Below are positions 5,141 through 53,994 of a DNA stretch of 64,000 nucleotides, piece by piece. The stretch is from contig CAVZSL010000006.1 of assembly GCA_963777935.1 (NCBI GenBank), forward strand, positions 53,522 to 117,521, given 5' to 3'. The stretch is from an uncultured Chloroflexia bacterium (GTDB lineage Bacteria; Chloroflexota; Anaerolineae; Anaerolineales; UBA4823). The position numbers were made by a program, and so were the translations under genes. How positions within the stretch are numbered: position 1 is the stretch's first letter; each line of letters begins with the position of its first letter. The notes beneath the pieces were generated by a model. That model had not been told where the DNA came from. It did not search any database and was given only the letters and a program-made list of their open reading frames with translations.

Positions 5141-6754
5141 TTATATTAGAAAATCACGTAAATGCCGGCTGCGGGTGGGATGGCGCAGCTTACGCAATGC
5201 TTTAGCCTCTATTTGACGGATGCGCTCTCTTGTCACGTTGAAAGCCTGGCCAACTTCCTCAAGGGTATGATCCTTTCCATCTAACAATCCGAAGCGCATT
5301 TCCAATACTTCCCGTTCCCGTTCTGAAAGGACTGCCAGTGTATTTTTTACCTGCTCACGCAGCATTTCACGGGCAGCTGCATCCATGGGCTCCTGGGCGT
5401 CTTCATCTTCGATGAAATCACCCAGCATGCTATTATCCTCGCTGCCAACCGGACTCTCCAAAGAAACAGGCTCTTCTGCAGCCCGTAACACCTGCCCAAC
5501 TTTTGAAGCTGCGTGAATCCATCGTACGCGCACATCTGTAGGCAAAAGGTTGGGATTTCCCTTGGCAAGAAGGATCATCTGTTTATCTTTGGGATCCACA
5601 AAGTCTGCTTCAAGCGCCAATTCCTCAGGCGTGGGTAATCGGCCTAAGGTTTGAGTGAGCTGGCGTTGAGCCTGCATTAAACGGTTGAAAGATTCAAAGA
5701 TGTGCACGGGTATGCGGATGGTCCGTGCCTGATCTGCGATCGAGCGGCTGATGGATTGCCGGATCCACCATGTGGCATAGGTGCTAAATTTATAACCGCG
5801 TGAGGGATCAAACTTCGAGACCGCACGCAACAGGCCTAGATTTCCTTCCTGGATGAGGTCGAGGAAGGAGCTTCCACGGCCGAGATAATGTTTAGCTACG
5901 CTGACCACCAATCGTAAATTGGAGCGGATCAGGATTTGTCTCGATTCGTGTGCCCGGAATTCTGAATTCTCTAACTCAGAGAGTAATATTTCTTCACCTG
6001 GAAGATGAGTGGCGAATGTATCATGAGATGGCATCCTGTTCTTTGTCAGGAAAAATTTTTCAATTACTTCGCTCAATTGTTCTGGAAAAAGATATAAACA
6101 GATGAATACCGTTATTCCGTTTACTGCAACCTGATCCCAAAGATGATCAATCCCCCATCGCCCGTTGTCGAGATATTTTCGCATATAGGAGGGGTTTTCA
6201 ATGGTCCAGATTAGTCGTAACCTGCGGGCTTCAGCGTTGATCAGTGAAAGATCCGGACAATCAAAACCCAGACGAAGGGTATCTTCAGCCAATCGTTTCC
6301 AACCAATCACCAACTCATCATACAAGGCGCGATAAATACTGTGAGAATATTGCCGTCCGCGCCTGGCAATTGGGTGAACCCGATTAAGCACATCAACCCG
6401 ACGGGCAGCTTCAATACGAGTTGCCAACCAAAATTCATGATCGGGGCTTAATAACTCGATTTCACCAATTTCTCTCAAATACAGTCGAACCGGGTCCTCA
6501 CCCAGCTCAGTATCCGAAGTTGATTTAAAAAGTCCAAGAGATTCCTCGTCGGGTAGATCGGCAATCTCCTCCACTTCTTTAGCCAGAAGCTCCTCGTCGG
6601 GTTCATCGATGACTACATCTGCGTCCATCTCCGACAATAAGTCATCAACATCGTCCAATCCCTGTGAAGAAAGGTGATCGTCCTTTTGATCGTTGTTTCC
6701 CTCTCCAGATGGGATTTCTTCTTGGTTAGAATCATGCTTGATTTTTCGAGCCAT
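5141..6754 (-). CDS. rpoD: RpoD/SigA-type sigma-70 factor with long non-conserved insertion
   Basis: Acidic N-terminus, [11 protein letters not shown] (region 1.2), [10 protein letters not shown] / [10 protein letters not shown] / [11 protein letters not shown] (region 2), [30 protein letters not shown] (region 4); downstream of dnaG. May be a paralog rather than the primary sigma. Confidence 0.85.
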
Positions 6755-10866: not shown

Positions 10867-12400
10867 TCATTTTCCAGGAAGGCAGTCGTTTGGGATAAGC
10901 TGCACATCAAATGGAGATGTATAGCGAGAAAAATAGCTGTAAGGAGGTAACAAAGGCAGATCTGCCCCAAAATAATGGTCGAATACAAGGCGAAATTCAT
11001 TAACAGGAGCGAATTGTGATGATAGGGATTGATCATATCCCGGCAGGTAAAAAGCACTCAAATTTGCCATCCGCCCAGCGTTTGAGACAAGCCCCGGACC
11101 CGTATCACCCTGCAGAATAATAATGGGTTTCGGATCACTATCTTCGATAATATGTTGTAAGATTGGTAAAAGTTGGCTATTCGTAAAGTCCAGCTGGTCG
11201 CGATAGGCTTGAGTTGTATTGCTCAGAATCCATAGCTTCCGGGTAATTTATCGGGCTTCCATCGGCAGTAAAAACGAATGGCTCATGCGTTATAAGGATA
11301 TGAGCAAATACAAATTTCGGTCCAGAGATTTCTTGTGGGATAGTTCTCAACTTTTCGAAATCAAAAAGGATCTGCTCCCTCTTAGTATCCAGTGGCTGGC
11401 TGGTATCGGGGACGAGGAATGAGGGCAGTATTTTTGCGAAGTCGATCAGAGCCTGGCCAGCTGTGGATTTTAACAGCATCACCTCAAAGTTATTCATTCT
11501 CCCTAACTGGACTTGATTTCCACCTTTGGGAGATAGATAATGATCTGCATAATAGAATTCGGAGAAATGAAATCCGGTCTCAAAGGCTACCAATTTGTAG
11601 CCTAAAGATCGGAATGCTTGCATAACACCGTTATCTTTTATCAGTTGACGTAATACTGATGTTTCTTTAGTGGAGGGATCAAATTTACCCAATGCATCCA
11701 AATAATTCATATTAAGAATTGAAGTCAAAACCATTTCAGTTTGGCTATAGTTGGATTGGCTGCAATCGACCACTTGAAAGCCAAGCTGCTTTAATTCATT
11801 AATAAATGTGGAGTTATCATAATTATAAGCTTTATCTAACCAATCCTGACGGGCATACATATCCAGGACGATAAAATAAACATCCGGAGGAGATTGACCT
11901 TCAGTCAGGGCAAGATTTCCAATTCCATGGATGGCTACCACTGTATTTTCGCTATCCTTGCCTTGTTGGATTTCCCAGCTGGAGATTTGGTAAATGGGGA
12001 ACACAAGCGCGACCAAAGCAGCGACATTTATAGCCCTCGTTATTGGGAATGGATTTTTAACCCGCTTGGCAATCAGCCATAATCCAATCACTGCCAATGA
12101 CAGCCAGAGGGGAAGCAGCAGCCTATGCCGTCCAAGGGTCGGAATCGATTTTTCCAGGAAATTGTATACATGCCCGTAGGTGAAAAATAAAACCAGCACC
12201 AGGCTGGCTGCCAGAGCTCCGCGCTGCCAGTCTTTAAATATCAGGCGCATGGTTATTAACAAAAACCCAGCAAAGGTAAGCACTATCAGAACAGCGCGGA
12301 GTGCTTCTTGCGGAAAAAGCTGGGAGATGTTCAATCCCAGTAATGACAGGACAAAATATAAGGCTAAAAGGAATGGATGAAGCGGTGATTTGCCCAACAA
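10867..12400 (-). CDS. Membrane-anchored alkaline-phosphatase-superfamily (LtaS/EptA/sulfatase-like) protein, split by +1 frameshift near 11214
   Basis: About 5 N-terminal TMs, PPDVYFIVLD, SNYSQT, AHILITHEP. Removing one base continues into QAYRDQLDFTN...IILQGDTG and the 10867-11070 ORF, co-linear with the upstream paralog. Confidence 0.8.
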
Positions 12401-43457: not shown

Positions 43458-44125
43458 ATGTTTTTTCTGTTCATGCTGGGTTATCGCACTCCGCTGAGTT
43501 CGAGGCAATGGCAGCTGTTAGCCTAACTTATTATTCATAATACAACATCATCATCCCGATATTCTCGTATATGAGACGCGCGGGTCGCTTATTCTATTCA
43601 TCGTTGATATCTTGCCAGAGTGGTGTGGCAAGCCTGGTCATGTCAAGAAATTATGACCAAATGTAATGAAAATGGATTGCCTCGATCAGAGAAACGAAAG
43701 AGAAGAGTAAAAGTGATTCCTGGCAAAGGAAGTATTATATTAAATCCCATACATCTAAAAGCTTGTTGTTATCCAAAGGACTTCATCTCAGATGTACTCA
43801 GGTAATATCCTCCATAGTTTGAGTCAGCTCTCTACGCAACACCTGCAGATCTGCGTGGCACATCAGTTTTTGTATGATTTTTCCCATCCTCCCATTATTG
43901 CTTACTTTGACGGTTCAAACCGCCTCTAATGATAACCCTTTGAAATTCGCGGGGTAAGTATTTCAGGTAAAAAAAAATAGGGAGATCTTGTACTGAAAAA
44001 TGTATTCCTGTATAATGAAAACATAATTTGGTGGGATACTTGATAGAACAGTGGATAATTAATAATATAAACCTTATTGTATGAGCAGGCGAAACATATG
44101 ATATCCATCCAAATGTGAAAAAAAC

Positions 44126-45122
44126 ATGAACAAACTTGCTGTTACTAAAATCATTGGTATCGTGATTATTTTATTTGGGACGATTGGAGCAAATACGGTA
44201 TCTTCGCTTGGCTCAACGAATGCTCTAGGCAATGACCTTGATACACAATATGAGATTGGGACCGATGGGTATCCAGTTCCAAATGATGACCCTGTTGTGG
44301 CAGGAGCGGGAGATATTTCTTTATGTAGTAAACCTGAAGACACATATACTGCTGCACTGTTAGCGAACATTAATGGAGATGTGATTACCTTCGGAGACAA
44401 TACTCAAGTGGATGGGACAGCAAAGGAGTTTGCTGCTTGCTATGACCCAACTTGGGGTCAATATAAATACAAGACCCATCCATCTCCAGGCAATCATGAC
44501 TACCATTCTCCGGGGGCTTGGCCTTACTACCATTATTTTGGAAGTGCAGCAGGAGAAGTTGGCAAGGGGTATTACAGTTACGATATTGGATCCTGGCATC
44601 TCATCGCCCTTAATAGCCTGATAGATAACAGTTCAAACTCTACCTCAGGTTCAATGGTTACAAGCAGATTTGGATTCACATCAGAATGATTGCACATTAG
44701 CCTATTGGCATTACCCACTTTTTACATCCGGACTACCTAATAAAAGCGTGTCTTCGATAGGTGATATTTGGGATGTCCTTTATGAGCATGGCGTAGATGT
44801 TGTCTTGAATGGACATGTTCATTTGTATGAACGCTTCGCACCGCAGAATCCACAAGGTGTCGCAGACTCAAATGGAATCCGCGAATTTGTGGTGGGAACT
44901 GGAGGTGGTGGTTGGTTTGATGATTATTCGCCTATCGCCAATAGCGAAGTAATCAACAACGAAACCTACGGAGTGATAAAACTAACGCTTCATGAAAATA
45001 GTTATGACTGGGAGTTTATTCCCATTGAGGGACAAACATTTACCGATTCTGGAAGCGCTGATTGTATCACACCCTTGTTTACACCAATCAATACTTTTTT
45101 TCCACTAATATGGAAGAAATAG
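44126..45122 (+). CDS. Secreted calcineurin-like metallophosphoesterase, +1 frameshift near 44645
   Basis: Signal peptide; AGDI, GDN and GNHDY, then QVQWLQADL...WHYP and NGHVHLYERF in the next frame; C-terminal FFPLIWKK. Confidence 0.85.
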
Positions 45123-45842
45123 GTGAATATTCAACTATATGTCCTTCTTCAAATTGCGAAAAAAAATATATATGCATCCTCTGGTAATGCATTACTGAGG
45201 CAGGCATAATATCCAATCTCTTCGGTTTTTAGCTGCCTTTGAAAAAGGACAGGAATATTTATCCTTGACACTTCCAGTGATGAGAGAAAAATAAATAATA
45301 GAAACAGATAGAATAATTTAATATTTTTATGCACAGCGTCTCAAAGATCACAGGCTCAGATATGCTAAGAAGATCGCTGTTCGCTGACCTTTTATGCCTA
45401 GATCCAACGCTCATTTGCTCTCCATAATTATTATTACTCTCTTGACCTATTTTAGGTGCGGATCAGGCTTTCCATGCTAACAAATCGACTAGATGGTGTG
45501 TTCATTTGAAAATGTGCCCATATAAAATGAGCTCAAAAGGTTAATCTTGGACATGTTTATAATGGAGATCGGATTGGCATTATTAATGATTAGAAAATAC
45601 GGGATTGTAATATCCCATGCCGAAGCTAATTGTGGAATTATTTTTCCTACAAATTGACTTAATTCTCGAGAGCCTTTTCGGCGGCAAAGTCTACCTAGCT
45701 TCAAGGTAACATATCCACACCGTATCTGGGTTGAAATATACACTCCTTTCAATATCGATAGAAGATTAATGAAATATTAGCAAATAATATTGTATTTCGA
45801 ATATTTTCAGGGGTTAGAATCTCAATACTCGATATTTTTAAT

Positions 45843-45984
45843 TTGACGTAAGCAAATAGTATTGCTATAATGAAACCAAGGTCTTTACAGCGTTGATTAC
45901 AACCGTAGTGCAGACCAACAGGGAGAACATTGATTTATTTTTACACATGGAACTCAACGATGAAAGGAGGTGGGGGCTCACCGA
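45843..45984 (+). promoter_or_regulatory. Promoter plus structured leader, copy 1
   Basis: TTGACG-17-TATAAT; GGTCT(45880)...AGACC(45912) stem; ACAGGGAGA; ACTCAACGATGAAAGGAGGTG; CTCA; co-linear with 50413-50556. Confidence 0.75.
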
Positions 45985-46495
45985 TTTGTTAGATATTACT
46001 TGCCAGAATTGTTTCCTTGGCAATCTAGGGTATATGCATCACAGAGCAAGAACACCTTCCACAATGTGACGACAGTGTCCCGGTACACAAATATGATGTA
46101 AAGCTCGTGAAATCACAATCGAGAAATTCAACACAATTAAAAAGCCAGCTTCGGTATTCGCGACTCCGTTTTCGCCAGAGGTTTGGTTGCCAATCACCGA
46201 TTGGCCCTCACTGTTTTTTATATCGAATGGCTGTGTTTTATTGGTCACTTTATAATACTGGCCTGTGAATCAGTTTGAAAATCATGCGTAAATGCACCTG
46301 TTCTTATGTCCGGGTTTTGGTTAGGTACAGATAACGCATGATGAAAAGCATATAAAAAAACAATAACTTGATGAGGTGGATCAAGAATACACATGGATTT
46401 AAAAAATTTGAGAGGAGGTGCAGGGGAGGGCTTTTTCGAGGAGGACGCGGTTTATAAAACCCAAATTTGACCACAAAAAGAGAGAGGATTAAATC

Positions 46496-49400
46496 ATGAA
46501 TAAGAGTCGGTTATTAGGAATAATGCTAACGATAGTAATACTGTTTTCCCTTATCGGACCTATCACCACTGGGGTGAGTGCCGCCGAGACTCGGAACATC
46601 GTCATCCTCGGCACCAGTGACATTCACGGCAATGTTGACAATTACGATTATTTCACCGACAGCGTGCCCACTGGCTCATCTCAGCGTGGCCTGACGAAGA
46701 TCCAAACATACGTGAAGAATGTGGTAGCGACAAATCCCAACACTATAATCATCGACGATGGCGATACCATCCAGGGCACACCGCTGGTCTACAAGTTTGG
46801 TGTCCTGGATACTGTGACCCCGAACCCCATGGCACTCGCCATGAATACCATTGGGTATACAGCCTCAACAGTCGGGAACCATGAATTCAATTATGGCCCG
46901 GCTGTTTTTAGTAATTATCAAGGCCAAGCTCACTTCCCTCTGCTCTCAGCCAACGTGACAGGCTGCGTGGGTTATACCTTCCAGCCTTACACGATTAAGG
47001 ACATAGGAGGGGTACAAGTAGGAATCCTCGGCCTTACCCCGCCCGCGGTTGTGCATTGGGAGAGGCCTGAGAACATCGTCGGATGCGTCTTTGGGGACGC
47101 GGTCGCGGCAGCTCAGGTATACGTACCCGAGATACGCGCTGCAGGAGCCGATATCATCGTCGTGGCTGCTCATAGTGGCTTGGATGAGACTTACGGTTAT
47201 GGCCGGGATGAGAACTTCGTCAAATACCTGGCCAACGAAGTTTCCGGGATCGATGTGATCCTGGCGGGTCACGCCCATGCATTAGTGGCGAGTCAAGTTA
47301 TCAATGGCGTGCTGGTCACTGAGCCGAACTACCATACCCGCAATATTTCCGACATCCGCATCACGGTCAGTGGCTCTGGCACTGACTGGGCGGTAACTGC
47401 AAAGTCAAGTACAGCCCCGGCGATGGGCAGCATTGCGGAGGACCCAGGCTTATATGCCCTTATGAAGCCTTACCACGATGCTACAGTTGCCTACATCAAC
47501 ACCCCTATCGGCACTGCGACTGATGCCTTCCCCGGCGGATTCCCCGCCCGCATCGCAGACGGCCCGATGGCCGACCTGATTAATCAGGTGCAGATGGATG
47601 CCGCCGCGGTAGCCGGATTCCCGGTGGAAGCATCCTGCGCTGCGCTATTCACCAATGATGCCAAGCTAAACGCCGGTCCCATTAAACTCAAGGATGCCTA
47701 CGCGGTCTATATCTACGACAACACCCTCTATGTCATCGAAGCCACCGGCCAGATGATCAAGGATGAGTTGGAGTGGACGGCTAACTATTTCAATCAGTAT
47801 TACTATGAGCCTGCTGGCGTGACCGTGAATTCGGCAGTGCGTGACTACAACTATGATCTGTGGTCAGGTATTGAATATAAGCTCGACGTCACCAAACCGG
47901 TTGGACAGCGCGTGGTCGAATTAAAACTCAACGGCCAGCCTCTGGCGATGGACCAGATGGTGCGTGTGGCACTGAACAACTACCGGGCGACCGGCAAATT
48001 CCCCACCGCCACCAAGCTCTATCAATCCACCACCGAGGTGCGTGAGCTGATCACCAACTGGATCATGGCACGCGGCGTTATCTCCCCCAGCGACGTCTTC
48101 GTACAGAACTACACGCTGCTGCCACCAGTCAACACCTGGCTAAGCACAACTACTGCCAACCCAGTCACCCGCTCCGATTACGCAGACCTGCTCTGGACAG
48201 CCTTTGATGGAAATCGGGATGACTACCTAAGGATTCCTAGCGACAAAAATACTCCGGGTGTGGATCTAAATCGGGAGGGATTGTTCTTCCTCATGAGCGA
48301 CAAGGCCATGGAGAACCTGCGGGACATCGAAGTGGATATGTCGGTGCTTAATGCCTACTCTGATAAGAAGAATCTTTCCAATTGGGCAAAAGGGGCAACA
48401 GCCTATACAATTCAAAGCGGGATCTTCATGCCGGTTGGCAACATGATCTACCCCAAGCAGTTGGCAACCAACGCTGAAGCTCTCACCTGGGTGCGGGAGG
48501 CTCGCTACCCTTACTTTACCTTCGTCTCCACCAATGATTTCCACGGTCAGTTGGAGACTGGAAAGGTGGTAAGCAATAAACCAGTAGGTGGCGCAGCCTA
48601 TAACATGACCTACATCAACAACTATAGAGCGCTCAACCCGCTTGGGACCCTGTTGCTGGATGCCGGCGATATAATGCAAGGCACGGCCATCTCGAACTGG
48701 CTCTGGGGAGTGTCGGTCATCGATGTTTATAACCACATGGGTTACAACGCGGCTACCATGGGCAATCACGAGTTTGATTGGGGTCAAGCCAGATTGCAGG
48801 AACGCATCGCACAGGCAGAGTTCCCCATCCTGCTTGCTAACGTCTTCAACGAGGGCACTGATACCCGCCCTGATTGGCTGGTCCCCACGGTTATGCTCAC
48901 GGTCAAGGGACAGCAAATCGGTGTGATCGGCGTGACCAGTAAGGATACACCTAGCATCGTCATGGCAGGTAACACCGCTGGCTTGGAGTTTCGTGATGTC
49001 GGACCGGTGGTTAGTCAGCTAACTGCTGAACTGCGCGCGGCTGGTGCGGATATCGTCGTCGTCCTGGCGCACATGCCGGATGTATATGGCGGTGTCGTCA
49101 GCGGCGAGATGGTTGGGGTCGCCGTCCCCGGCGTGGACCTGATCATCTCGGGTCACTCCCACAGCGGCTACTCAGGTAAGATCAACAACATCCCGATCAT
49201 CCAGCAATACTCCTCCGGGACAGCTATTGGGGTTTCCAACCTGAGTTACGACCGATTGTACGGCGGCGTGGCAGGTTCCACCCTTGCAGTGGTGACCACT
49301 TACAATGCAGGCATCACGCCAAATGCTGAGATCGCAGCCTTAGTGGATGAATACCTGGCAGAGATCGCACCGATTAAGAACGTGGTCAAGGCCTCTACCT

Positions 49401-50026
49401 CCGGTCCCATTTCTAGGACCACCAACCCAGCGGGTGAATCACCTATGGGTACCCTGATTGCTGATGCCCAGGCGTGGAAGGGCGGTACCCAGATCGCCTT
49501 CATGAACCCTGGCGGCATTCGCGATGATATCTCGTACGCTAGCTATCCCCACGATATAACCTTCGGCGATTTCTTCGACGTCCAGCCGTTCGACAACAAG
49601 CTGGTCACCATGAATCTAACCGGGGCTAATATCTACAGCCTGCTGGAGCAGCAGTTCGCTCCCACCCAGACATGCACCCCAACCCCATGTGTCCCCAAAA
49701 AAGTGCTGCTGGTCTCGGGAATCACCTATAAGTACAGGTTGGCGCTCCCGGTAGGATCGCGCATCCTCGACCTCCAACTATCGGATGGCACTCCCATCGC
49801 AAACGATGCAACCACCTACACCGTCACGATGAATGAGTACCTGGCTACCGGTGGTGACAAGTTCAGCACGTTCCTCCAAGGGACCAACGTTATCCGCATT
49901 GGGGTCAGCGACCTGGACGCATTGGTCGAATACGTCCAAGACCGGTTTGGTGTGCCCCCGGGCAACACCCCTATCGATCCAACAGTCTATCCCACCATCG
50001 AAGGGCGCATCACCGAAGTACCATAA
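46496..50026 (+). CDS. Secreted multidomain 2',3'-cyclic-nucleotide phosphodiesterase / 5'-nucleotidase (YfkN-like) with central SLH-like segment
   Basis: Two metallophosphoesterase + 5'-NT-C modules (TSDIHG/DGD/GNHEFN/GHAH and TNDFHG/AGD/GNHEFD/GHSH, NPGGIR); central YSD...SNWAKGA..Y....GI......YPKQ.AT.AE. Confidence 0.9.
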   Translation: MNKSRLLGIMLTIVILFSLIGPITTGVSAAETRNIVILGTSDIHGNVDNYDYFTDSVPTGSSQRGLTKIQTYVKNVVATNPNTIIIDDGDTIQGTPLVYKFGVLDTVTPNPMALAMNTIGYTASTVGNHEFNYGPAVFSNYQGQAHFPLLSANVTGCVGYTFQPYTIKDIGGVQVGILGLTPPAVVHWERPENIVGCVFGDAVAAAQVYVPEIRAAGADIIVVAAHSGLDETYGYGRDENFVKYLANEVSGIDVILAGHAHALVASQVINGVLVTEPNYHTRNISDIRITVSGSGTDWAVTAKSSTAPAMGSIAEDPGLYALMKPYHDATVAYINTPIGTATDAFPGGFPARIADGPMADLINQVQMDAAAVAGFPVEASCAALFTNDAKLNAGPIKLKDAYAVYIYDNTLYVIEATGQMIKDELEWTANYFNQYYYEPAGVTVNSAVRDYNYDLWSGIEYKLDVTKPVGQRVVELKLNGQPLAMDQMVRVALNNYRATGKFPTATKLYQSTTEVRELITNWIMARGVISPSDVFVQNYTLLPPVNTWLSTTTANPVTRSDYADLLWTAFDGNRDDYLRIPSDKNTPGVDLNREGLFFLMSDKAMENLRDIEVDMSVLNAYSDKKNLSNWAKGATAYTIQSGIFMPVGNMIYPKQLATNAEALTWVREARYPYFTFVSTNDFHGQLETGKVVSNKPVGGAAYNMTYINNYRALNPLGTLLLDAGDIMQGTAISNWLWGVSVIDVYNHMGYNAATMGNHEFDWGQARLQERIAQAEFPILLANVFNEGTDTRPDWLVPTVMLTVKGQQIGVIGVTSKDTPSIVMAGNTAGLEFRDVGPVVSQLTAELRAAGADIVVVLAHMPDVYGGVVSGEMVGVAVPGVDLIISGHSHSGYSGKINNIPIIQQYSSGTAIGVSNLSYDRLYGGVAGSTLAVVTTYNAGITPNAEIAALVDEYLAEIAPIKNVVKASTSGPISRTTNPAGESPMGTLIADAQAWKGGTQIAFMNPGGIRDDISYASYPHDITFGDFFDVQPFDNKLVTMNLTGANIYSLLEQQFAPTQTCTPTPCVPKKVLLVSGITYKYRLALPVGSRILDLQLSDGTPIANDATTYTVTMNEYLATGGDKFSTFLQGTNVIRIGVSDLDALVEYVQDRFGVPPGNTPIDPTVYPTIEGRITEVP

Positions 50027-50036
50027 TACTTGTAAC

Positions 50037-50062
50037 GGGAGGGAACCACGAGGTTCCCTCCC
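50037..50062 (+). terminator. Strong hairpin after the nucleotidase gene (terminator or attenuator)
   Basis: 11-bp stem GGGAGGGAACC-ACGA-GGTTCCCTCCC with weak U-tail (TCTTC). Confidence 0.6.
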
Positions 50063-50078
50063 TCTTCATGAGGTTAAG

Positions 50079-50306
50079 ATGGCTGATGATCGTAAAATCG
50101 TGTATGTCAATGGTAAGCCCATCTCTATCTTTCTCTGGGCTGAAGTACAGCACTGCGTCAATGCCTATGATAGTGAGCTTTACCTAAAAGTGTGTAGGGG
50201 AGAGGCAGAGATTGTCGATGAAATAGGAGGACGGATCGGTTGGGGCGGTTTTGCCAGCAACGGTCAGCACATCTATGTGCGCCTTCTAAGCATGGATGAT
50301 GATTGA
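50079..50306 (+). CDS. Small hypothetical protein (75 aa), possible beta-grasp fold
   Basis: GAGGT RBS + ATG 50079 inside track ORF 49833-50306; IVYVNGKPISI...IVDEIG...SNGQHIYV pattern. Confidence 0.65.
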   Translation: MADDRKIVYVNGKPISIFLWAEVQHCVNAYDSELYLKVCRGEAEIVDEIGGRIGWGGFASNGQHIYVRLLSMDDD

Positions 50307-50412
50307 AGCCTACAATCCATTTTTTTATCAATGGAAGTTCAATCATAGACTAGCAAAAATTATTGTTTTTTGGGCGTTTTTATAAGAAAACAATCGATTT
50401 TGGGGGTTAAGT

Positions 50413-50556
50413 TTGACTTGAGCAAGTAATATAGCTATAATATATTTACGGTCTAGAAATCAGTAGTAATATTGAAATTTGATTAGACCTACAGGGAGAT
50501 CAGCGATTGTTTCAATAAGGTATACTCAAGGATGAAAGGAGGTGTCATCTCAGCGA
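50413..50556 (+). promoter_or_regulatory. Promoter plus structured leader, copy 2
   Basis: TTGACT-17-TATAAT; GGTCT(50450)...AGACC(50485); ACAGGGAGA; ACTCAAGGATGAAAGGAGGTG; CTCA. Confidence 0.75.
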
Positions 50557-50746
50557 ACGACAAGTTCTAAACCATTGGTATTGTTCCCCTGTAGTAGGAT
50601 GCTTTATAAACAATGGGGAATATCGATGAGTCAGTGGAGAAAATCACCGATTTGATAAAACATTCAGCTTTGGAATAATTTAACAGTGAAACCAAAGCAG
50701 CAGAGCAATTAAAAACACCCAAACGAAAATTTACTGGAGGAAATCC

Positions 50747-52483
50747 ATGCGAACCAAATCCTTATTCTATCCATTCTCTCTTGTTCTGACGCTTACAATG
50801 TTGCTGGCACTGTCTTTTCCGGTGTCGGCTGCAACCAAACCGGCATCGGTCGATGTACAGATCCTGTCACTCAATGACTTTCATGGGGCACTCGATCCGA
50901 GCTTGACGAAACCCAGCTCGACAGATCAGACCACGTGGTACTATCGAGGCGGTGCAGAGTACCTCGCCAACTTTGTCAGTGCCGCTACCATCACCAATCC
51001 CAACACCGTCAAAGTTGTTGCCGGGGATATGTTCGGGGCCAGTCCGCTGCTCTCGGCGCTGTTTCATGATGAGCCGACAGTGATGGCCTTCAACCTGATG
51101 GGGTTTGATTTTGCCGCTACGGGTAACCATGAGTATGATGAGGGTTGGCAAGAACTGCTGCGTATGCAAAACGGCGGATGCCATCCAACGGACGGCTGCT
51201 ACCCAGGGTTCCCGGTGTTTCCGGGGGCATCATTCAAGTACCTGTCTGCCAACGTTATCCGTCTGGATACTGCTGAAACTTTATTCCCCACTTTTATGGT
51301 GAAGCAATATGGAAACGTCAAAGTGGGATTCATTGGGATTGCCCTAGAAACAACCCCTACGATTGTTGTTCCTTCGGCTGTTGCCGATCTCGAATTCCTG
51401 CCCGAAGTGGCCACGATTAATCAATATGTGAAATTCTTGAAGGACACCCAGAATATTAAAACCATTGTTGTCCTGTTGCATGATGGGGCGGGGGCTGCAG
51501 CTAACTATAACGCCTGCAATTCCACGGATCCTTTCTTCACCAATCTCGTGATGAAGATCGATCCAGAAGTGGATGCCCTGATTAGCGGACACACCCATAA
51601 TGCCTACAACTGCCAAATCCGGGTCAAGAAAAACTACGACCCAATGGTTGTAACCAGCGCGGGCTATAACGGCCGCTACCTGACTGACATCGATCTAACG
51701 ATCTCCAGTACCAGTGGTCAGGTGATTGGCAAATCAGCGAATAACATACCGGTGGAAACCCCATTTCTGACCGCAATCCCAGACCCCACCATGAAGGCGC
51801 TGCTTGATCAGTATCGAGTGGCTTCAGCCCCCTTGGCGAATCGCGTTGTTGGCTCGATCACTGCTGATATTTTCAGAGCAGGCAACGCGGCGGGTGAATC
51901 TGCCCTTGGCGATGTGCTCGCCGATGCTCAGCTAGAAGCGACTTCCCAGGTAGGATATGGTGAGGCGATAGTTGGAATGACCAACCCAGGCGGAATCCGC
52001 ACCGACCTGCTCTACAATCAGATCAGTGGTGGAGAAGCACCAGGGGAGGTGACATACGCCGAGGCTTTTGCTGTACAACCCTTCAGCAACAGCCTGGTGA
52101 CAATGACGCTTACTGGTGCGCAAATAAAGACGGTGCTCGAGCAACAATTCATTGGATGTGGACAACTCCCACCACCCGTAGGTGGTCAAAAAATCCTGCA
52201 GGTTTCCGCTGGTTTCACCTATTCCTGGAGCAGTTCAGCACCGGCTTGCAGCAAGATTGACCCAACGACCATCAAGATCAATGGAGTACCGGTTGATCCA
52301 AGCGCCAGCTACCGGATTACAGTCAACAACTTCCTGGCTGCCGGTGGGGACAACTTCGCGGGGTTCAAAGACGGCACGGATCTGTTGACTGGAATGATCG
52401 ACCTGGATGCCTTTACCGCCTATTTGGGGGCTTATTCTCCAGTTGCACCTGGTCCACAGAATCGCATCAGCGTAGTTCCATAA
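50747..52483 (+). CDS. Secreted bifunctional metallophosphatase/5'-nucleotidase
   Basis: Signal peptide; LNDFHG, AGD, GNHEYDEG, GHTH, NPGGIR, VQPFSN, FLAAGGDNF; GGAGG RBS. Confidence 0.93.
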   Translation: MRTKSLFYPFSLVLTLTMLLALSFPVSAATKPASVDVQILSLNDFHGALDPSLTKPSSTDQTTWYYRGGAEYLANFVSAATITNPNTVKVVAGDMFGASPLLSALFHDEPTVMAFNLMGFDFAATGNHEYDEGWQELLRMQNGGCHPTDGCYPGFPVFPGASFKYLSANVIRLDTAETLFPTFMVKQYGNVKVGFIGIALETTPTIVVPSAVADLEFLPEVATINQYVKFLKDTQNIKTIVVLLHDGAGAAANYNACNSTDPFFTNLVMKIDPEVDALISGHTHNAYNCQIRVKKNYDPMVVTSAGYNGRYLTDIDLTISSTSGQVIGKSANNIPVETPFLTAIPDPTMKALLDQYRVASAPLANRVVGSITADIFRAGNAAGESALGDVLADAQLEATSQVGYGEAIVGMTNPGGIRTDLLYNQISGGEAPGEVTYAEAFAVQPFSNSLVTMTLTGAQIKTVLEQQFIGCGQLPPPVGGQKILQVSAGFTYSWSSSAPACSKIDPTTIKINGVPVDPSASYRITVNNFLAAGGDNFAGFKDGTDLLTGMIDLDAFTAYLGAYSPVAPGPQNRISVVP

Positions 52484-52529
52484 GCACTGGGAGATTAGAT
52501 ACAACCAAAAATCCATTTATTGTAAGTGG

Positions 52530-52561
52530 AGGCGAGAGTGAGACCCACTCTCGCCTTTTTT
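52530..52561 (+). terminator. Rho-independent terminator
   Basis: AGGCGAGAGTG-AGACC-CACTCTCGCCT followed by a T-run. Confidence 0.85.
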
Positions 52562-52839
52562 ATTTCGAAACCCTGACTGCCTGCGTTTATTGGAATTCTC
52601 TCCATACCGTCATGGAATAAGAGATACGCCAAATCGTGAGGAGCACTGAAATTAGCTCATAGGAATTTGTCTGCTGATTATATTTCTTCGTTTACATCAC
52701 CGGCATTCTCTTCTCACTATATTAAAGATCATCTCTAAATACACATGATTCATCCATCTAATCTTCACAATTTTTGAATAATTTGTGTTTATACTTATTT
52801 CATCTGCAATACAACAGCAGATTATGATGGAGGTTTTCT

Positions 52840-53994
52840 ATGTCTTTGAAAAGGTTATTGATATACATTCTTGCTATTCTCCTCGTTGGAGGATCTGCAC
52901 TCTTTGGTGCCATGGCTGGGGGAGTTGTCGTATACCGCTTGATGAGTAAGAATCAGGTTACCACTGGCGTCACACCAAACCCATTATCAGCTCAGGTATT
53001 ACCAGCGAGTAACAACACCCAAGACCTGGTGATCAATACCACCGACATTGAGACCGCCATCACAGCAGCAGTTCAGAATGTGGGTCCGGCTGTGGTAACT
53101 GTGGTCGCTAAAATCCCCGGACAACAAACATTCTTCGGTTACACCGGTGATGCCACCTCCTCGGGTAGCGGCGTATTCATATCATCAGACGGATACATCC
53201 TCACCAACAATCATGTCATCGAAGGCAGCCAGCAAATCCAGGCTATCTTCGCCGATGGCAGCCAGCAGGATGCCTCCCTGGTGGGGGCTGACCAATATTC
53301 TGATCTGGCAGTCTTAAAAATTTCTGGCTATGTGCCAGCCGTAGCCAACCTGGGCAACTCCGATGCGCTTAATCCCGGCGAGACGGTCATTGCCATTGGC
53401 TCACCTCTCGGAGATTTCAAGAACACGGTCACCGTCGGGGTGGTCAGTGCCACCGGACGATCGATCGACAGCGGCTCGGGGTACTCGATCGATGGCCTGA
53501 TCCAGACCGATGCAGCCATTAACCAGGGCAACTCGGGTGGTCCACTGGTAAATCTGGCAGGAGAAGTGGTCGCCATTAACACCCTGATCATCCGCAATAG
53601 TAACTCAGGCACAGTCGCTGAGGGGTTGGGTTTTGCTATCCCCATCAACACTGCCAGGTTTGTTTCTGAGCAGATCATCCAGAAAGGTTATGTTTCCCGC
53701 CCCTACCTGGGGATTACCTGGCAGCCAATCACACCACGCGTGTCAGCCATCTACAATCTGCCGGTTCAATATGGTGTCTACATCACAGATGTGGCTTCCA
53801 AAAGCCCTGCGAATCAGGCTGGATTAAAGGTGGGGGATATCATTACCGGGATCGATAGCACATCGCTTGACGATACGCATGCATATATTAATACCTTGTT
53901 CCAATATTCTGCTGGTGATACCGTCATTCTGACAATCATGCGCAACGGCAAACAAACCGAAGTGCAGGTTACTCTTGGCGACTCAGGTTCGTAA
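52840..53994 (+). CDS. htrA: HtrA/DegP-family serine protease with one PDZ domain
   Basis: N-terminal TM; GSG, TNNHV, DLAVLK, IQTDAAINQGNSGGPL; PDZ domain (YLGI, SPA..AGLK.GD). Confidence 0.92.
   Translation: MSLKRLLIYILAILLVGGSALFGAMAGGVVVYRLMSKNQVTTGVTPNPLSAQVLPASNNTQDLVINTTDIETAITAAVQNVGPAVVTVVAKIPGQQTFFGYTGDATSSGSGVFISSDGYILTNNHVIEGSQQIQAIFADGSQQDASLVGADQYSDLAVLKISGYVPAVANLGNSDALNPGETVIAIGSPLGDFKNTVTVGVVSATGRSIDSGSGYSIDGLIQTDAAINQGNSGGPLVNLAGEVVAINTLIIRNSNSGTVAEGLGFAIPINTARFVSEQIIQKGYVSRPYLGITWQPITPRVSAIYNLPVQYGVYITDVASKSPANQAGLKVGDIITGIDSTSLDDTHAYINTLFQYSAGDTVILTIMRNGKQTEVQVTLGDSGS

Follow-up and report, generated by a model that had tools for sequence, protein, structure and literature searches.

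The closest described relatives of the element discussed here come from Bacillus. One is the stabilising Shine-Dalgarno sequence (STAB-SD) of Bacillus thuringiensis cry3A, reportedly the work of Agaisse and Lereclus (1996) and Mathy et al. (2007), and the others are the 5' stem-loop stabilisers of the B. subtilis aprE and ermC leaders, which are said to go back to Hambraeus et al. (2002) and Sharp and Bechhofer (2003). At the level of DNA, two-operator repressor promoters with DNA looping are exemplified by lac, gal and deo/CytR. The stretch analysed here, called the window, comprises 64,000 nucleotides (nt) of contig CAVZSL010000006.1 from an uncultured member of the Anaerolineae (Chloroflexota), and holds two copies of a promoter with a 5' leader, each in front of a gene for a nucleotidase with a signal-peptide-like N-terminus. 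The finding is a real, conserved and genus-restricted regulatory cassette which, judged by its sequence, looks more like a repressor-controlled promoter with an mRNA-protecting leader than like a metabolite-sensing riboswitch.

As with the STAB-SD of cry3A, described in PMC4113751, the cassette has a Shine-Dalgarno-like (SD-like) sequence that is complementary to 16S rRNA and lies in a long 5' untranslated region without a start codon. Both hosts possess RNase J and both elements precede a gene for an abundantly made protein. The features published for Bacillus in that source, an SD-like leader and RNase J, recur with the cassette, and so, if transcription starts where predicted, do those of the 5'-hairpin stabilisers of Bacillus leaders in PMC3997798; like aprE and ermC as presented there, the cassette would join a hairpin at its predicted 5' end to a strong ribosome-binding sequence before a secreted hydrolase. 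The product of aprE is subtilisin, and one of the cassettes described below precedes an S8 subtilase. Unlike the STAB-SD, which belongs to the Bacillota, the cassette occurs in Chloroflexota, its SD-like block is situated between two hairpins and beside an invariant block that the STAB-SD does not have, and stabilisation is in this case a prediction. Unlike aprE and ermC, it keeps its SD-like box separate from the real ribosome-binding site (RBS) and carries extra conserved blocks. Its leader is also about three times longer than that of aprE, which measures about 58 nt. With the lac, gal and deo/CytR promoters it has in common two copies of one palindrome, one on the core promoter and the other an integral number of helical turns upstream. 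It differs from them in that its palindrome, GCAAT-N4-ATTGC, matches no operator consensus among those testable, and in that the centre of the distal site falls at about -92 if transcription starts 7 nt past the -10 box, a position also compatible with activation.

Two copies in the window and their relatives

Direct reading and self-alignment confirmed the two leader copies at 45843-45984 and 50413-50556 with every feature that the initial annotation had listed for them, from the promoter and the GGTCT/AGACC hairpin to ACAGGGAGA (45918-45926 and 50491-50499) and ACTCAA(C/G)GATGAAAGGAGGTG-N4-CTCA (45952-45980 and 50524-50552). The alignment of the two copies spans promoter and leader and gives the repeat families D1 and D2, to which the last of these motifs belongs. 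The similarity is wider than first described, reaching from about -100 upstream to about +190 of the transcript. As the combined promoter-leader pattern has exactly two matches in the 3.82-Mb genome (92% complete) and none in a reversed control, the similarity goes beyond chance. The two copies are only 50% identical over the aligned leader columns, yet the blocks are kept. Copy 1 is the diverged member, with a covariance score of 116 bits against 120-178 bits for most others and with a degenerate second hairpin. The start codons, placed about 510 and 190 nt downstream by the annotation, are at 46496 and 50747, 512 and 191 nt beyond the reported ends of the copies. The N-termini of both gene products look like signal peptides when read by eye.

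The family was defined by blastn within the genus, by a covariance model built from 16 copies and by pattern scans. The covariance model gave 19 matches in 11 of the 22 genus genomes, with one to three copies per genome, and a three-block pattern added seven metagenome contigs with one copy each; the set used below (A4) holds 28 matches, or 27 distinct sequences, from genus genomes and metagenome contigs. A further partial match to the model was found within the genus (G152, 20.3 bits). The family comprises 137 genomes, and the 115 that lie outside the genus yielded one weak full-length match (G316, 33.5 bits), in which only the SD-like block and about 40 nt after it are recognisably common, and one partial match (G241, 23.5 bits). 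No match to the strict pattern turned up in 200 further genomes of the order. When 185,579 species genomes were scanned with a pattern, 16 stretches came back, and six of these are contigs of this genus labelled as uncultured Chloroflexia or Anaerolineae; the other ten are in unrelated taxa, and about eight chance matches are expected for the pattern by our own arithmetic. On these searches the cassette is conserved and confined to one genus of uncultured Anaerolineae.

The tie to secreted nucleotide phosphohydrolases proposed for the two window genes extends across species. In a Pfam scan of 15 first downstream open reading frames (ORFs), which did not extend to the three G206 copies, to G204, to G212 or to the metagenome contigs, 14 carried Metallophos, 5_nucleotid_C or Phosphodiest domains and one, in G201, was the S8 subtilase. 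Of the genus genomes, 13 encode a protein homologous to the 578-aa nucleotidase (threshold E 1e-20), and 11 of these carry the leader; the nine others all lack it. Comparison with Rfam 15 bore out the view that this is no known riboswitch. In the window (44000-53000, E up to 10) no match came near its gathering score, the best overlaps being snR35 (16.9 bits, gathering 40) and CRISPR-DR22 (26.4 bits, gathering 50), the second of which falls within leader 2, in its 3' part; at 18 homologous loci (searched at E up to 1), nothing fell within a leader at E of 1 or better. A search of a limited literature set found no paper relevant to a leader upstream of such nucleotidases.

In the family the elements follow one another in the order distal palindrome (O1), proximal palindrome (O2) in the promoter spacer, 5' hairpin (P1), block R1, SD-like block, block R2 and block R3, the last two of which pair as hairpin P5. 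In window coordinates the two copies and their genes are laid out as follows.

45780..45793, no strand: copy 1 distal palindrome O1 GCAAATAATATTGT, operator-like, 72 bp upstream of O2 (start to start)
45843..45871, plus strand: copy 1 promoter TTGACG-17-TATAAT with TG before the -10 box, 11/12 matches
45852..45865, no strand: copy 1 O2, the proximal palindrome GCAAATAGTATTGC, which takes up the promoter spacer
45880..45916, plus strand: copy 1 hairpin P1, GGUCU...AGACC (GGTCT 45880-45884, AGACC 45912-45916), 8 nt past the -10 box
45915..45928, plus strand: copy 1 block R1 CCAACAGGGAGAAC, a diverged form of CUACAGGGAGAUCA
45962..45972, plus strand: copy 1 SD-like block GAAAGGAGGTG, without a usable start codon
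45969..45982, plus strand: copy 1 candidate short hairpin P3, GGUG-N6-CACC, weakly supported, overlapping the 3' end of the SD-like block
46010..46062, plus strand: copy 1 degenerate counterpart of R2/R3, UUUCCUUGG ... CAGAGCAAG, helix not kept
46410..46427, plus strand: copy 1 second SD-like block with R3-like box, GAGAGGAGGTG-CAGGGGA, deep in the 510-nt leader and conserved in the G212 counterpart
46496..50026, plus strand: gene 1, 1176 aa, Metallophos and 5'-nucleotidase C-terminal domains, each in two stretches
50353..50366, no strand: copy 2 distal palindrome O1 GCAAAAATTATTGT, 69 bp upstream of O2 (start to start)
50413..50441, plus strand: copy 2 promoter TTGACT-17-TATAAT, 11/12 matches
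50422..50435, no strand: copy 2 proximal palindrome O2 GCAAGTAATATAGC, inside the promoter spacer
50450..50489, plus strand: copy 2 hairpin P1, GGUCU...AGACC with extended inner stem (GGTCT 50450-50454, AGACC 50485-50489), -9.8 kcal/mol, z = -3.2
50489..50502, plus strand: copy 2 invariant block R1 CTACAGGGAGATCA, its sole exact occurrence in the genome
50534..50544, plus strand: copy 2 SD-like block GAAAGGAGGTG, without a start codon
50584..50620, plus strand: copy 2 hairpin P5, R2 (UUCCCC, then CUGUAG) with R3 (GGGGAA)
50747..52483, plus strand: gene 2, 578 aa, Metallophos and 5'-nucleotidase C-terminal domains

Several smaller observations belong to these leaders. In leader 1, about 380 nt separate the degenerate R2 region from the second SD-like/CAGGGGA block (46030-46410), an arrangement common to G212 (L049), and a minus-strand ORF of 69 aa (46039-46248) overlaps this insert. 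An ORF of 157 aa (49833-50306), read in a different frame across the 3' end of gene 1, is probably spurious. Between P5 and the RBS of leader 2 lies a 7-bp hairpin, GCTTTGG...CCAAAGC (50667-50714), which accounts for the sub-threshold CRISPR-DR22 match (E 0.053) and is probably merely a local hairpin, since it is without a repeat array. The c-di-GMP-II riboswitch family gave a match below threshold (27.5 bits, gathering 53.5, E 0.11) about 400 nt upstream of one leader of G201 (G201a); it is on the opposite strand and points towards the divergent upstream gene (G201:C19, L083 1043-1138, minus strand).

Operator-like palindromes, hairpins and invariant blocks

The two promoters are the best sigma-70-like sites between 45500 and 51000. 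They are present, as the annotation had them, and the letters it gave for the shared promoter, AGCAA.TA.TAT.GC, form one of two operator-like palindromes and recur about 70 bp upstream as the other. The consensus is 14 bp long. O2 fills the 17-nt promoter spacer, and in 22 of the 27 copies O1 lies 69-74 bp upstream, or about seven helical turns (distances run from start to start and were corrected by one base against the script output). Four of the remaining five copies have no O1 candidate and one has no -10 box that the script detected. A palindrome pair at conserved helical-repeat spacing, one member of which overlaps the core promoter, is what was found, as in two-operator promoters, and regulation may be largely at the DNA level. 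Neither this pair nor the 11-nt SD-like block had been part of the first description. The only other relaxed pair of GCAAT-N4-ATTGC-like sites 40-110 bp apart in the genome is at G000:C1:104841-104912 (L114 2842-2913), with the sites 58 bp apart. It was considered as a second palindrome pair (104841/104899); it lies in intergenic DNA, 3' of one ORF and about 600 nt from another, with no obvious promoter, and was judged to be chance.

In the RNA, P1 has the family form GGUCU-N25-30-AGAYC; it begins 8 nt past the -10 box in both window copies and therefore 0-2 nt from the predicted start (+7 or +8 after the -10 box). The spacers measure about 35 nt between R1 and the SD-like block, about 30 partly conserved nt before the UCCCCU of R2, and about 25 nt from R2 to the CAGGGGA of R3. 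RNAalifold predicts only two helices, P1 (5 bp) and P5 (R2:R3, 6 bp, UCCCCU/AGGGGA). In the alignment of the 27 copies, which was fitted to the covariance model so that pairing and covariation counts are biased towards that model, 92.5% of cells pair against 38-57% in slid controls, 6 of 15 pairs have changed on both sides and none of 500 shuffles reaches the covariation score. One pair of P1 is G:C in 15 copies, G:U in seven and A:U in one, and the last pair of P5 is U:A in 18, C:G in two and A:U in one. In one metagenome copy (L100) a stem of different sequence replaces P1 and by eye still pairs. The claim that the hairpin interiors differ in the two window copies and nevertheless pair is correct, both folding as described, and for the 5' hairpin the wider claim of structure kept over sequence is upheld by the exchanges at the P1 pair and by the swapped stem of L100. 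Among the helices examined, compensatory support is limited to P1 and P5.

Folding statistics give a similar picture. Whole leaders are no more stable than their dinucleotide shuffles (mean z -0.26, n=27). For the 20 of 27 copies that could be cut by anchors, window copy 1 not being among them, P1 (mean z -1.74, with 14 of 20 below -1) and P5 (-1.29) are the only segments that fold better than shuffles, while the central segments of 36-46 nt fold like them (R1-to-SD spacer -0.07, SD-to-R2 -0.6). As modelled, the leader is a pair of hairpins around a weakly structured centre and not a compact aptamer. The P3 stem GGUG/CACC shows no covariation and has a mismatch at one pair in 8 of 27 copies. 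Other structures were considered and dropped: by eye, a few copies suggest helices P2 and P4 and a kissing contact of a GACGUC loop with another GACGUC further downstream, none of them general, and a U:A to C:G covariation seen by eye in G201 and G209 is in a different register from the other clades. No consistent intrinsic terminator follows P3 or P5, the only plus-strand terminator-like site being the 5-bp GGTG/CACC stem of copy 1, and by eye no U-tract terminator follows P5.

R1 reads CUACAGGGAGAUCA over 14 nt and shows no more than one change in 24 of 27 copies. No pairing is predicted for it (mean unpaired probability 0.46), and it resembles R3 (CAGGGAGA vs CAGGGGA). The SD-like block, with the family form GAAAGGAGGUG followed by N6-CACCGAU, is the most conserved block of all and is invariant or one base off in all 27 copies. 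The own genome has no assembled 16S, and a genus relative (G086) served as reference: its 16S ends in ...GGATCACCTCCTTTCTAG, and GAAAGGAGGTG is the exact 11-nt complement of CACCUCCUUUC in that 3' end, or the reverse complement of CACCTCCTTTC. Where a copy reads (T)AGAAAGGAGGTG, the complement grows to 12-13 nt by our own reading. None of the 27 copies has an ATG, GTG or TTG 3-12 nt after GGAGG, and such codons at 1-2 or 13-18 nt are scattered and not conserved. The 11-mer has only eight genomic occurrences: the leaders account for two, and another two stand 3-13 nt ahead of an ORF of 60 aa or more. A leader peptide starting at the ATG of GATGAAAGG was rejected: the ATG is found only in some copies, both window copies, G210, G206c46 and L099/L095 among them, and other copies have CAGAAAGG, TAAAAAGG or CGGAAAGG instead. 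A small ORF after AGGGGA, by eye, is inconsistent in presence and has a spacing of 1 nt.

Movement of the cassette between genes

In many pairs of genes the conserved blocks are kept though the downstream proteins are only 23-32% identical or unrelated. The blocks are sharp, with invariant 11-14-mers standing beside spacers that have diverged to randomness. Within G201 and within G209 the leaders are 72-83% identical, while the proteins are unrelated or 23-24% identical; for G209a and G209b the values are 83% for the leaders and 23% for the proteins. The reverse holds for G201c and G073b, whose proteins are 79% identical and whose leaders are 54% identical. The S8 protease gene of G201 has its leader and about 26-42 N-terminal residues in common with nucleotidase paralogues.

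On its 3' side the leader is joined to the RBS in at least four unrelated junction forms downstream of P5. Form 1 is a CGUAC/GUACG hairpin that carries the RBS and a GUG start, form 2 is long and has a CACCCAAAC box, and forms 3 and 4 are that of window copy 2 and the 510-nt form of window copy 1, which is common to G212. In G209b, G201c and G204 a decayed copy of form 1 lies about 200 nt upstream of a different RBS. The sharing of N-terminal residues by the S8 protease and the mixed 3' junctions lead to the conclusion that the cassette is copied between genes, as read from these comparisons. The varied types of RBS and N-terminus, with the newer RBS about 200 nt away, fit a module whose action is on the 5' end and not on any particular RBS.

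Some further details concern these loci. The S8 subtilase of G201 (L046 2128-5106) has PA, fn3_6 and Inhibitor_I9 domains and has acquired the cassette together with the signal-peptide region, the latter region having homologues in nucleotide pyrophosphatase/5'-nucleotidase fusion proteins. What is left, in decayed form, of an older RBS, start codon and signal-peptide coding sequence (GTACGTAAAGTGA...) lies between the leader and the newer RBS (GAGGAGGAATGCATG) at L047 ~6435-6640, at L046 ~11507-11710 and on the reverse strand of L008 downstream of 1373. In the window, the nucleotidase locus adjoins a conserved HtrA-like Trypsin_2-PDZ protease gene (52840-53994) and was compared with L051 (G210) and L052 (G202). 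The nucleotidases of G210 at the corresponding locus are only 29-32% identical to those of the window (46496-53994). On this comparison, gene content turns over at the nucleotidase locus while the regulatory cassette persists.

Proposed operator control and mRNA protection, and competing explanations

The explanation favoured here, tentatively and with a likelihood that falls somewhat short of even, is a promoter controlled by a transcription factor and followed by an mRNA-stabilising leader of the STAB-SD/5'-hairpin type that binds the 30S ribosomal subunit. It treats the two copies as members of a modular expression cassette that one Anaerolineae genus sets before secreted phosphohydrolase genes. 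A putative dimeric transcription factor at O1 and O2 would set when the genes are transcribed, in the simplest form as a repressor bridging the two sites. The transcript would begin with P1 at, or a few nt from, the predicted 5' end, and P1 would block 5'-end-dependent decay. A 30S subunit parked on the SD-like block would halt the 5'-to-3' digestion by RNase J, and a processed 5' end just upstream of GAAAGGAGG would perhaps be expected. In this scheme the sequence features, their conservation, the tie to the genes and the set of nucleases are shown, and factor binding, the transcription start, 30S binding and stabilisation are inferred. Searches of the 92%-complete assembly detected RNase J (TIGR00649, 586.8 bits at a cut-off of 400 bits) and RNase Y (660.8 bits) but no RNase E/G.

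A number of observations weigh against this explanation. Strict palindrome sites number 38 genome-wide against 8-19 in shuffles, which is a modest excess, and neighbourhood Pfam scans found no regulator gene adjoining the loci examined. The SD-like block is hardly more open than the whole leader (unpaired probability 0.47 vs 0.42), the GGUG at its end is for the most part paired (0.15), and some 95 nt separate the block from the predicted 5' end, whereas the stabilising SD of cry3A is close to the processed end. The nucleotidase loci of G207 and G211 have no leader even when search filters are switched off; with two genus genomes possessing nucleotidase homologues and lacking the leader, it is dispensable for at least some nucleotidase paralogues. 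The 14-nt invariance of CUACAGGGAGAUCA, the conservation of the letters of UCCCCU/AGGGGA and the roughly 40 nt after the SD-like block exceed what a stabiliser needs, and this suggests an additional specific partner. As the role of invariant CUACAGGGAGAUCA and the letter conservation of R2/R3 are not explained by the stabiliser model, a specific protein, RNA or ligand partner may be involved. One rather doubtful proposal along these lines is an undescribed regulatory RNA of Chloroflexota, in which P1, CUACAGGGAGAUCA, the SD-like box and the UCCCCU/AGGGGA helix would sense a nucleotide- or phosphate-scavenging signal, directly or via a protein, and gate the parking of 30S subunits on the decoy SD, so that mRNA lifetime and not initiation at the RBS would be regulated.

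The initial annotation had proposed a shared switch or a protein-binding leader, and it is the second half of this proposal that retains some standing. A trans-acting RNA-binding protein or small RNA that reads the purine-rich boxes (CUACAGGGAGAUCA, CAGGGGA and perhaps the SD-like block) and tunes stability or translation to the supply of phosphate or nucleotides is unlikely, although it is the strongest of the competitors. R1, an unpaired 14-mer with so few changes among the copies, would be a typical protein or RNA contact site, and it resembles R3; moreover, the leaders within G201 and within G209 are more alike than the leaders of orthologous genes, which fits co-evolution with a genome-specific partner, or gene conversion. 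No candidate for such a partner was found, however. The boxes resemble what we take to be the GGA-loop sites of CsrA, but CsrA (PF02599) was not found in the 92%-complete genome while control genomes matched, and a CsrA target was therefore rejected. Antisense to R1 with at most one mismatch has one genomic hit, about the chance level, and none in an obvious small-RNA context; the 16S of the relative contains no complement of R1 at up to three mismatches, and there is no conserved pairing of the RBS for a partner to act through. The first half of the proposal, a nucleotide- or phosphate-responsive aptamer, gained no support. In that improbable case an undescribed riboswitch would form a pocket for a nucleoside, nucleotide, phosphate or cyclic nucleotide from its blocks, with R2 switching between R1 and R3. 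Like riboswitches and leaders in Rfam, the cassette has a 5' leader position, a tie to one class of enzyme genes and long, invariant unpaired blocks flanked by helices, and it matches no Rfam family. In window copy 2, CUACAGGG of R1 is perfectly complementary to CCCUGUAG in R2, and R1:R2 pairing (-16.0 kcal/mol, reached by 2% of shuffles of the R2 extension) surpasses R2:R3 (-12.5 kcal/mol). Across the family such a switch was rejected, as R1:R2 beats 95% of shuffles in only 3 of 22 copies (mean -11.0 vs -9.8 in controls). Unlike the Rfam examples, the cassette has no stable global fold, as the whole-leader and central z values given above indicate; only two short helices are predicted or supported, and neither a covariation-supported aptamer structure nor a conserved expression platform or terminator was found. 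One copy precedes an S8 protease, and the leader is confined to one genus, with only the 33.5-bit and 23.5-bit matches in the 115 other family genomes.

That the boxes past the start (CTACAGGGAGAT, its inverted relative CTACAGAGGGGAC in R2, and CACAGGGGAT) are transcription-factor sites or roadblocks in DNA, with an idle RNA, is quite improbable, even though O1 and O2 are clearly DNA-type palindromes with helical-repeat spacing, R1, R3 and the reverse complement of R2 look like one word repeated three times, and the folding statistics are weak. P1 tolerates changes of an RNA type: seven of 27 copies have G:U at one pair, a further copy has an A:U double change, and the replaced stem of the metagenome copy pairs by eye; P5 has double changes from U:A to A:U or C:G at its last pair; the complementarity of the most conserved box to the 16S 3' tail is meaningful only for RNA; and all boxes keep one orientation relative to the gene. 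Very little probability is given to recruitment by R1 of a NusG paralogue of the RfaH/LoaP type, in the manner of ops, for processive transcription of the 1.7-3.8-kb genes. Sites of the ops type are invariant short words found in the long leaders of exported-product genes, and besides its housekeeping NusG the genome encodes another member of that family, 168 aa long (PF02357, 61.5 bits). But all 22 genus genomes encode the paralogue and 11 of them have no leader, and for want of a phyletic correlation this candidate was rejected; most downstream units start with a long single gene and not a long operon, and R1 is unlike any ops word that could be tested. The gene itself lies at G000:C7:336068-336571 (L116 1492-1998), its product has an RfaH-/LoaP-like N-terminus, and it is 75-90% identical across the 22 genomes. 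Least credible of all is that the similarity is a mere residue of a recent duplication of gene and upstream region. The genes are tandem paralogues and cassettes have clearly been copied between genes, but a residue of this kind would not leave sharp, invariant 11-14-mers among randomised spacers, blocks that hold across species with downstream proteins 23-32% identical, or window copies that keep their blocks at 50% identity.

Gene control in the Anaerolineae is almost unknown because the group is mostly uncultured, though it is abundant in sediments, sludge and soil. With its candidate operator pair, strong promoter and leader, the cassette is a concrete unit open to testing. Should the SD-like box act as a STAB-SD, the shielding of mRNA from RNase J by ribosomes would reach into a phylum distant from the Bacillota, and long-lived mRNAs for secreted nucleotide-scavenging enzymes would be suggested. 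That the cassette has moved among unrelated genes, in one instance carrying a signal peptide along to an S8 protease, clearly shows a promoter-leader module in the course of spreading inside genomes. If instead the invariant block marks a ligand or protein switch, the cassette would represent a new class of regulatory RNA for the acquisition of extracellular nucleotides or phosphate.

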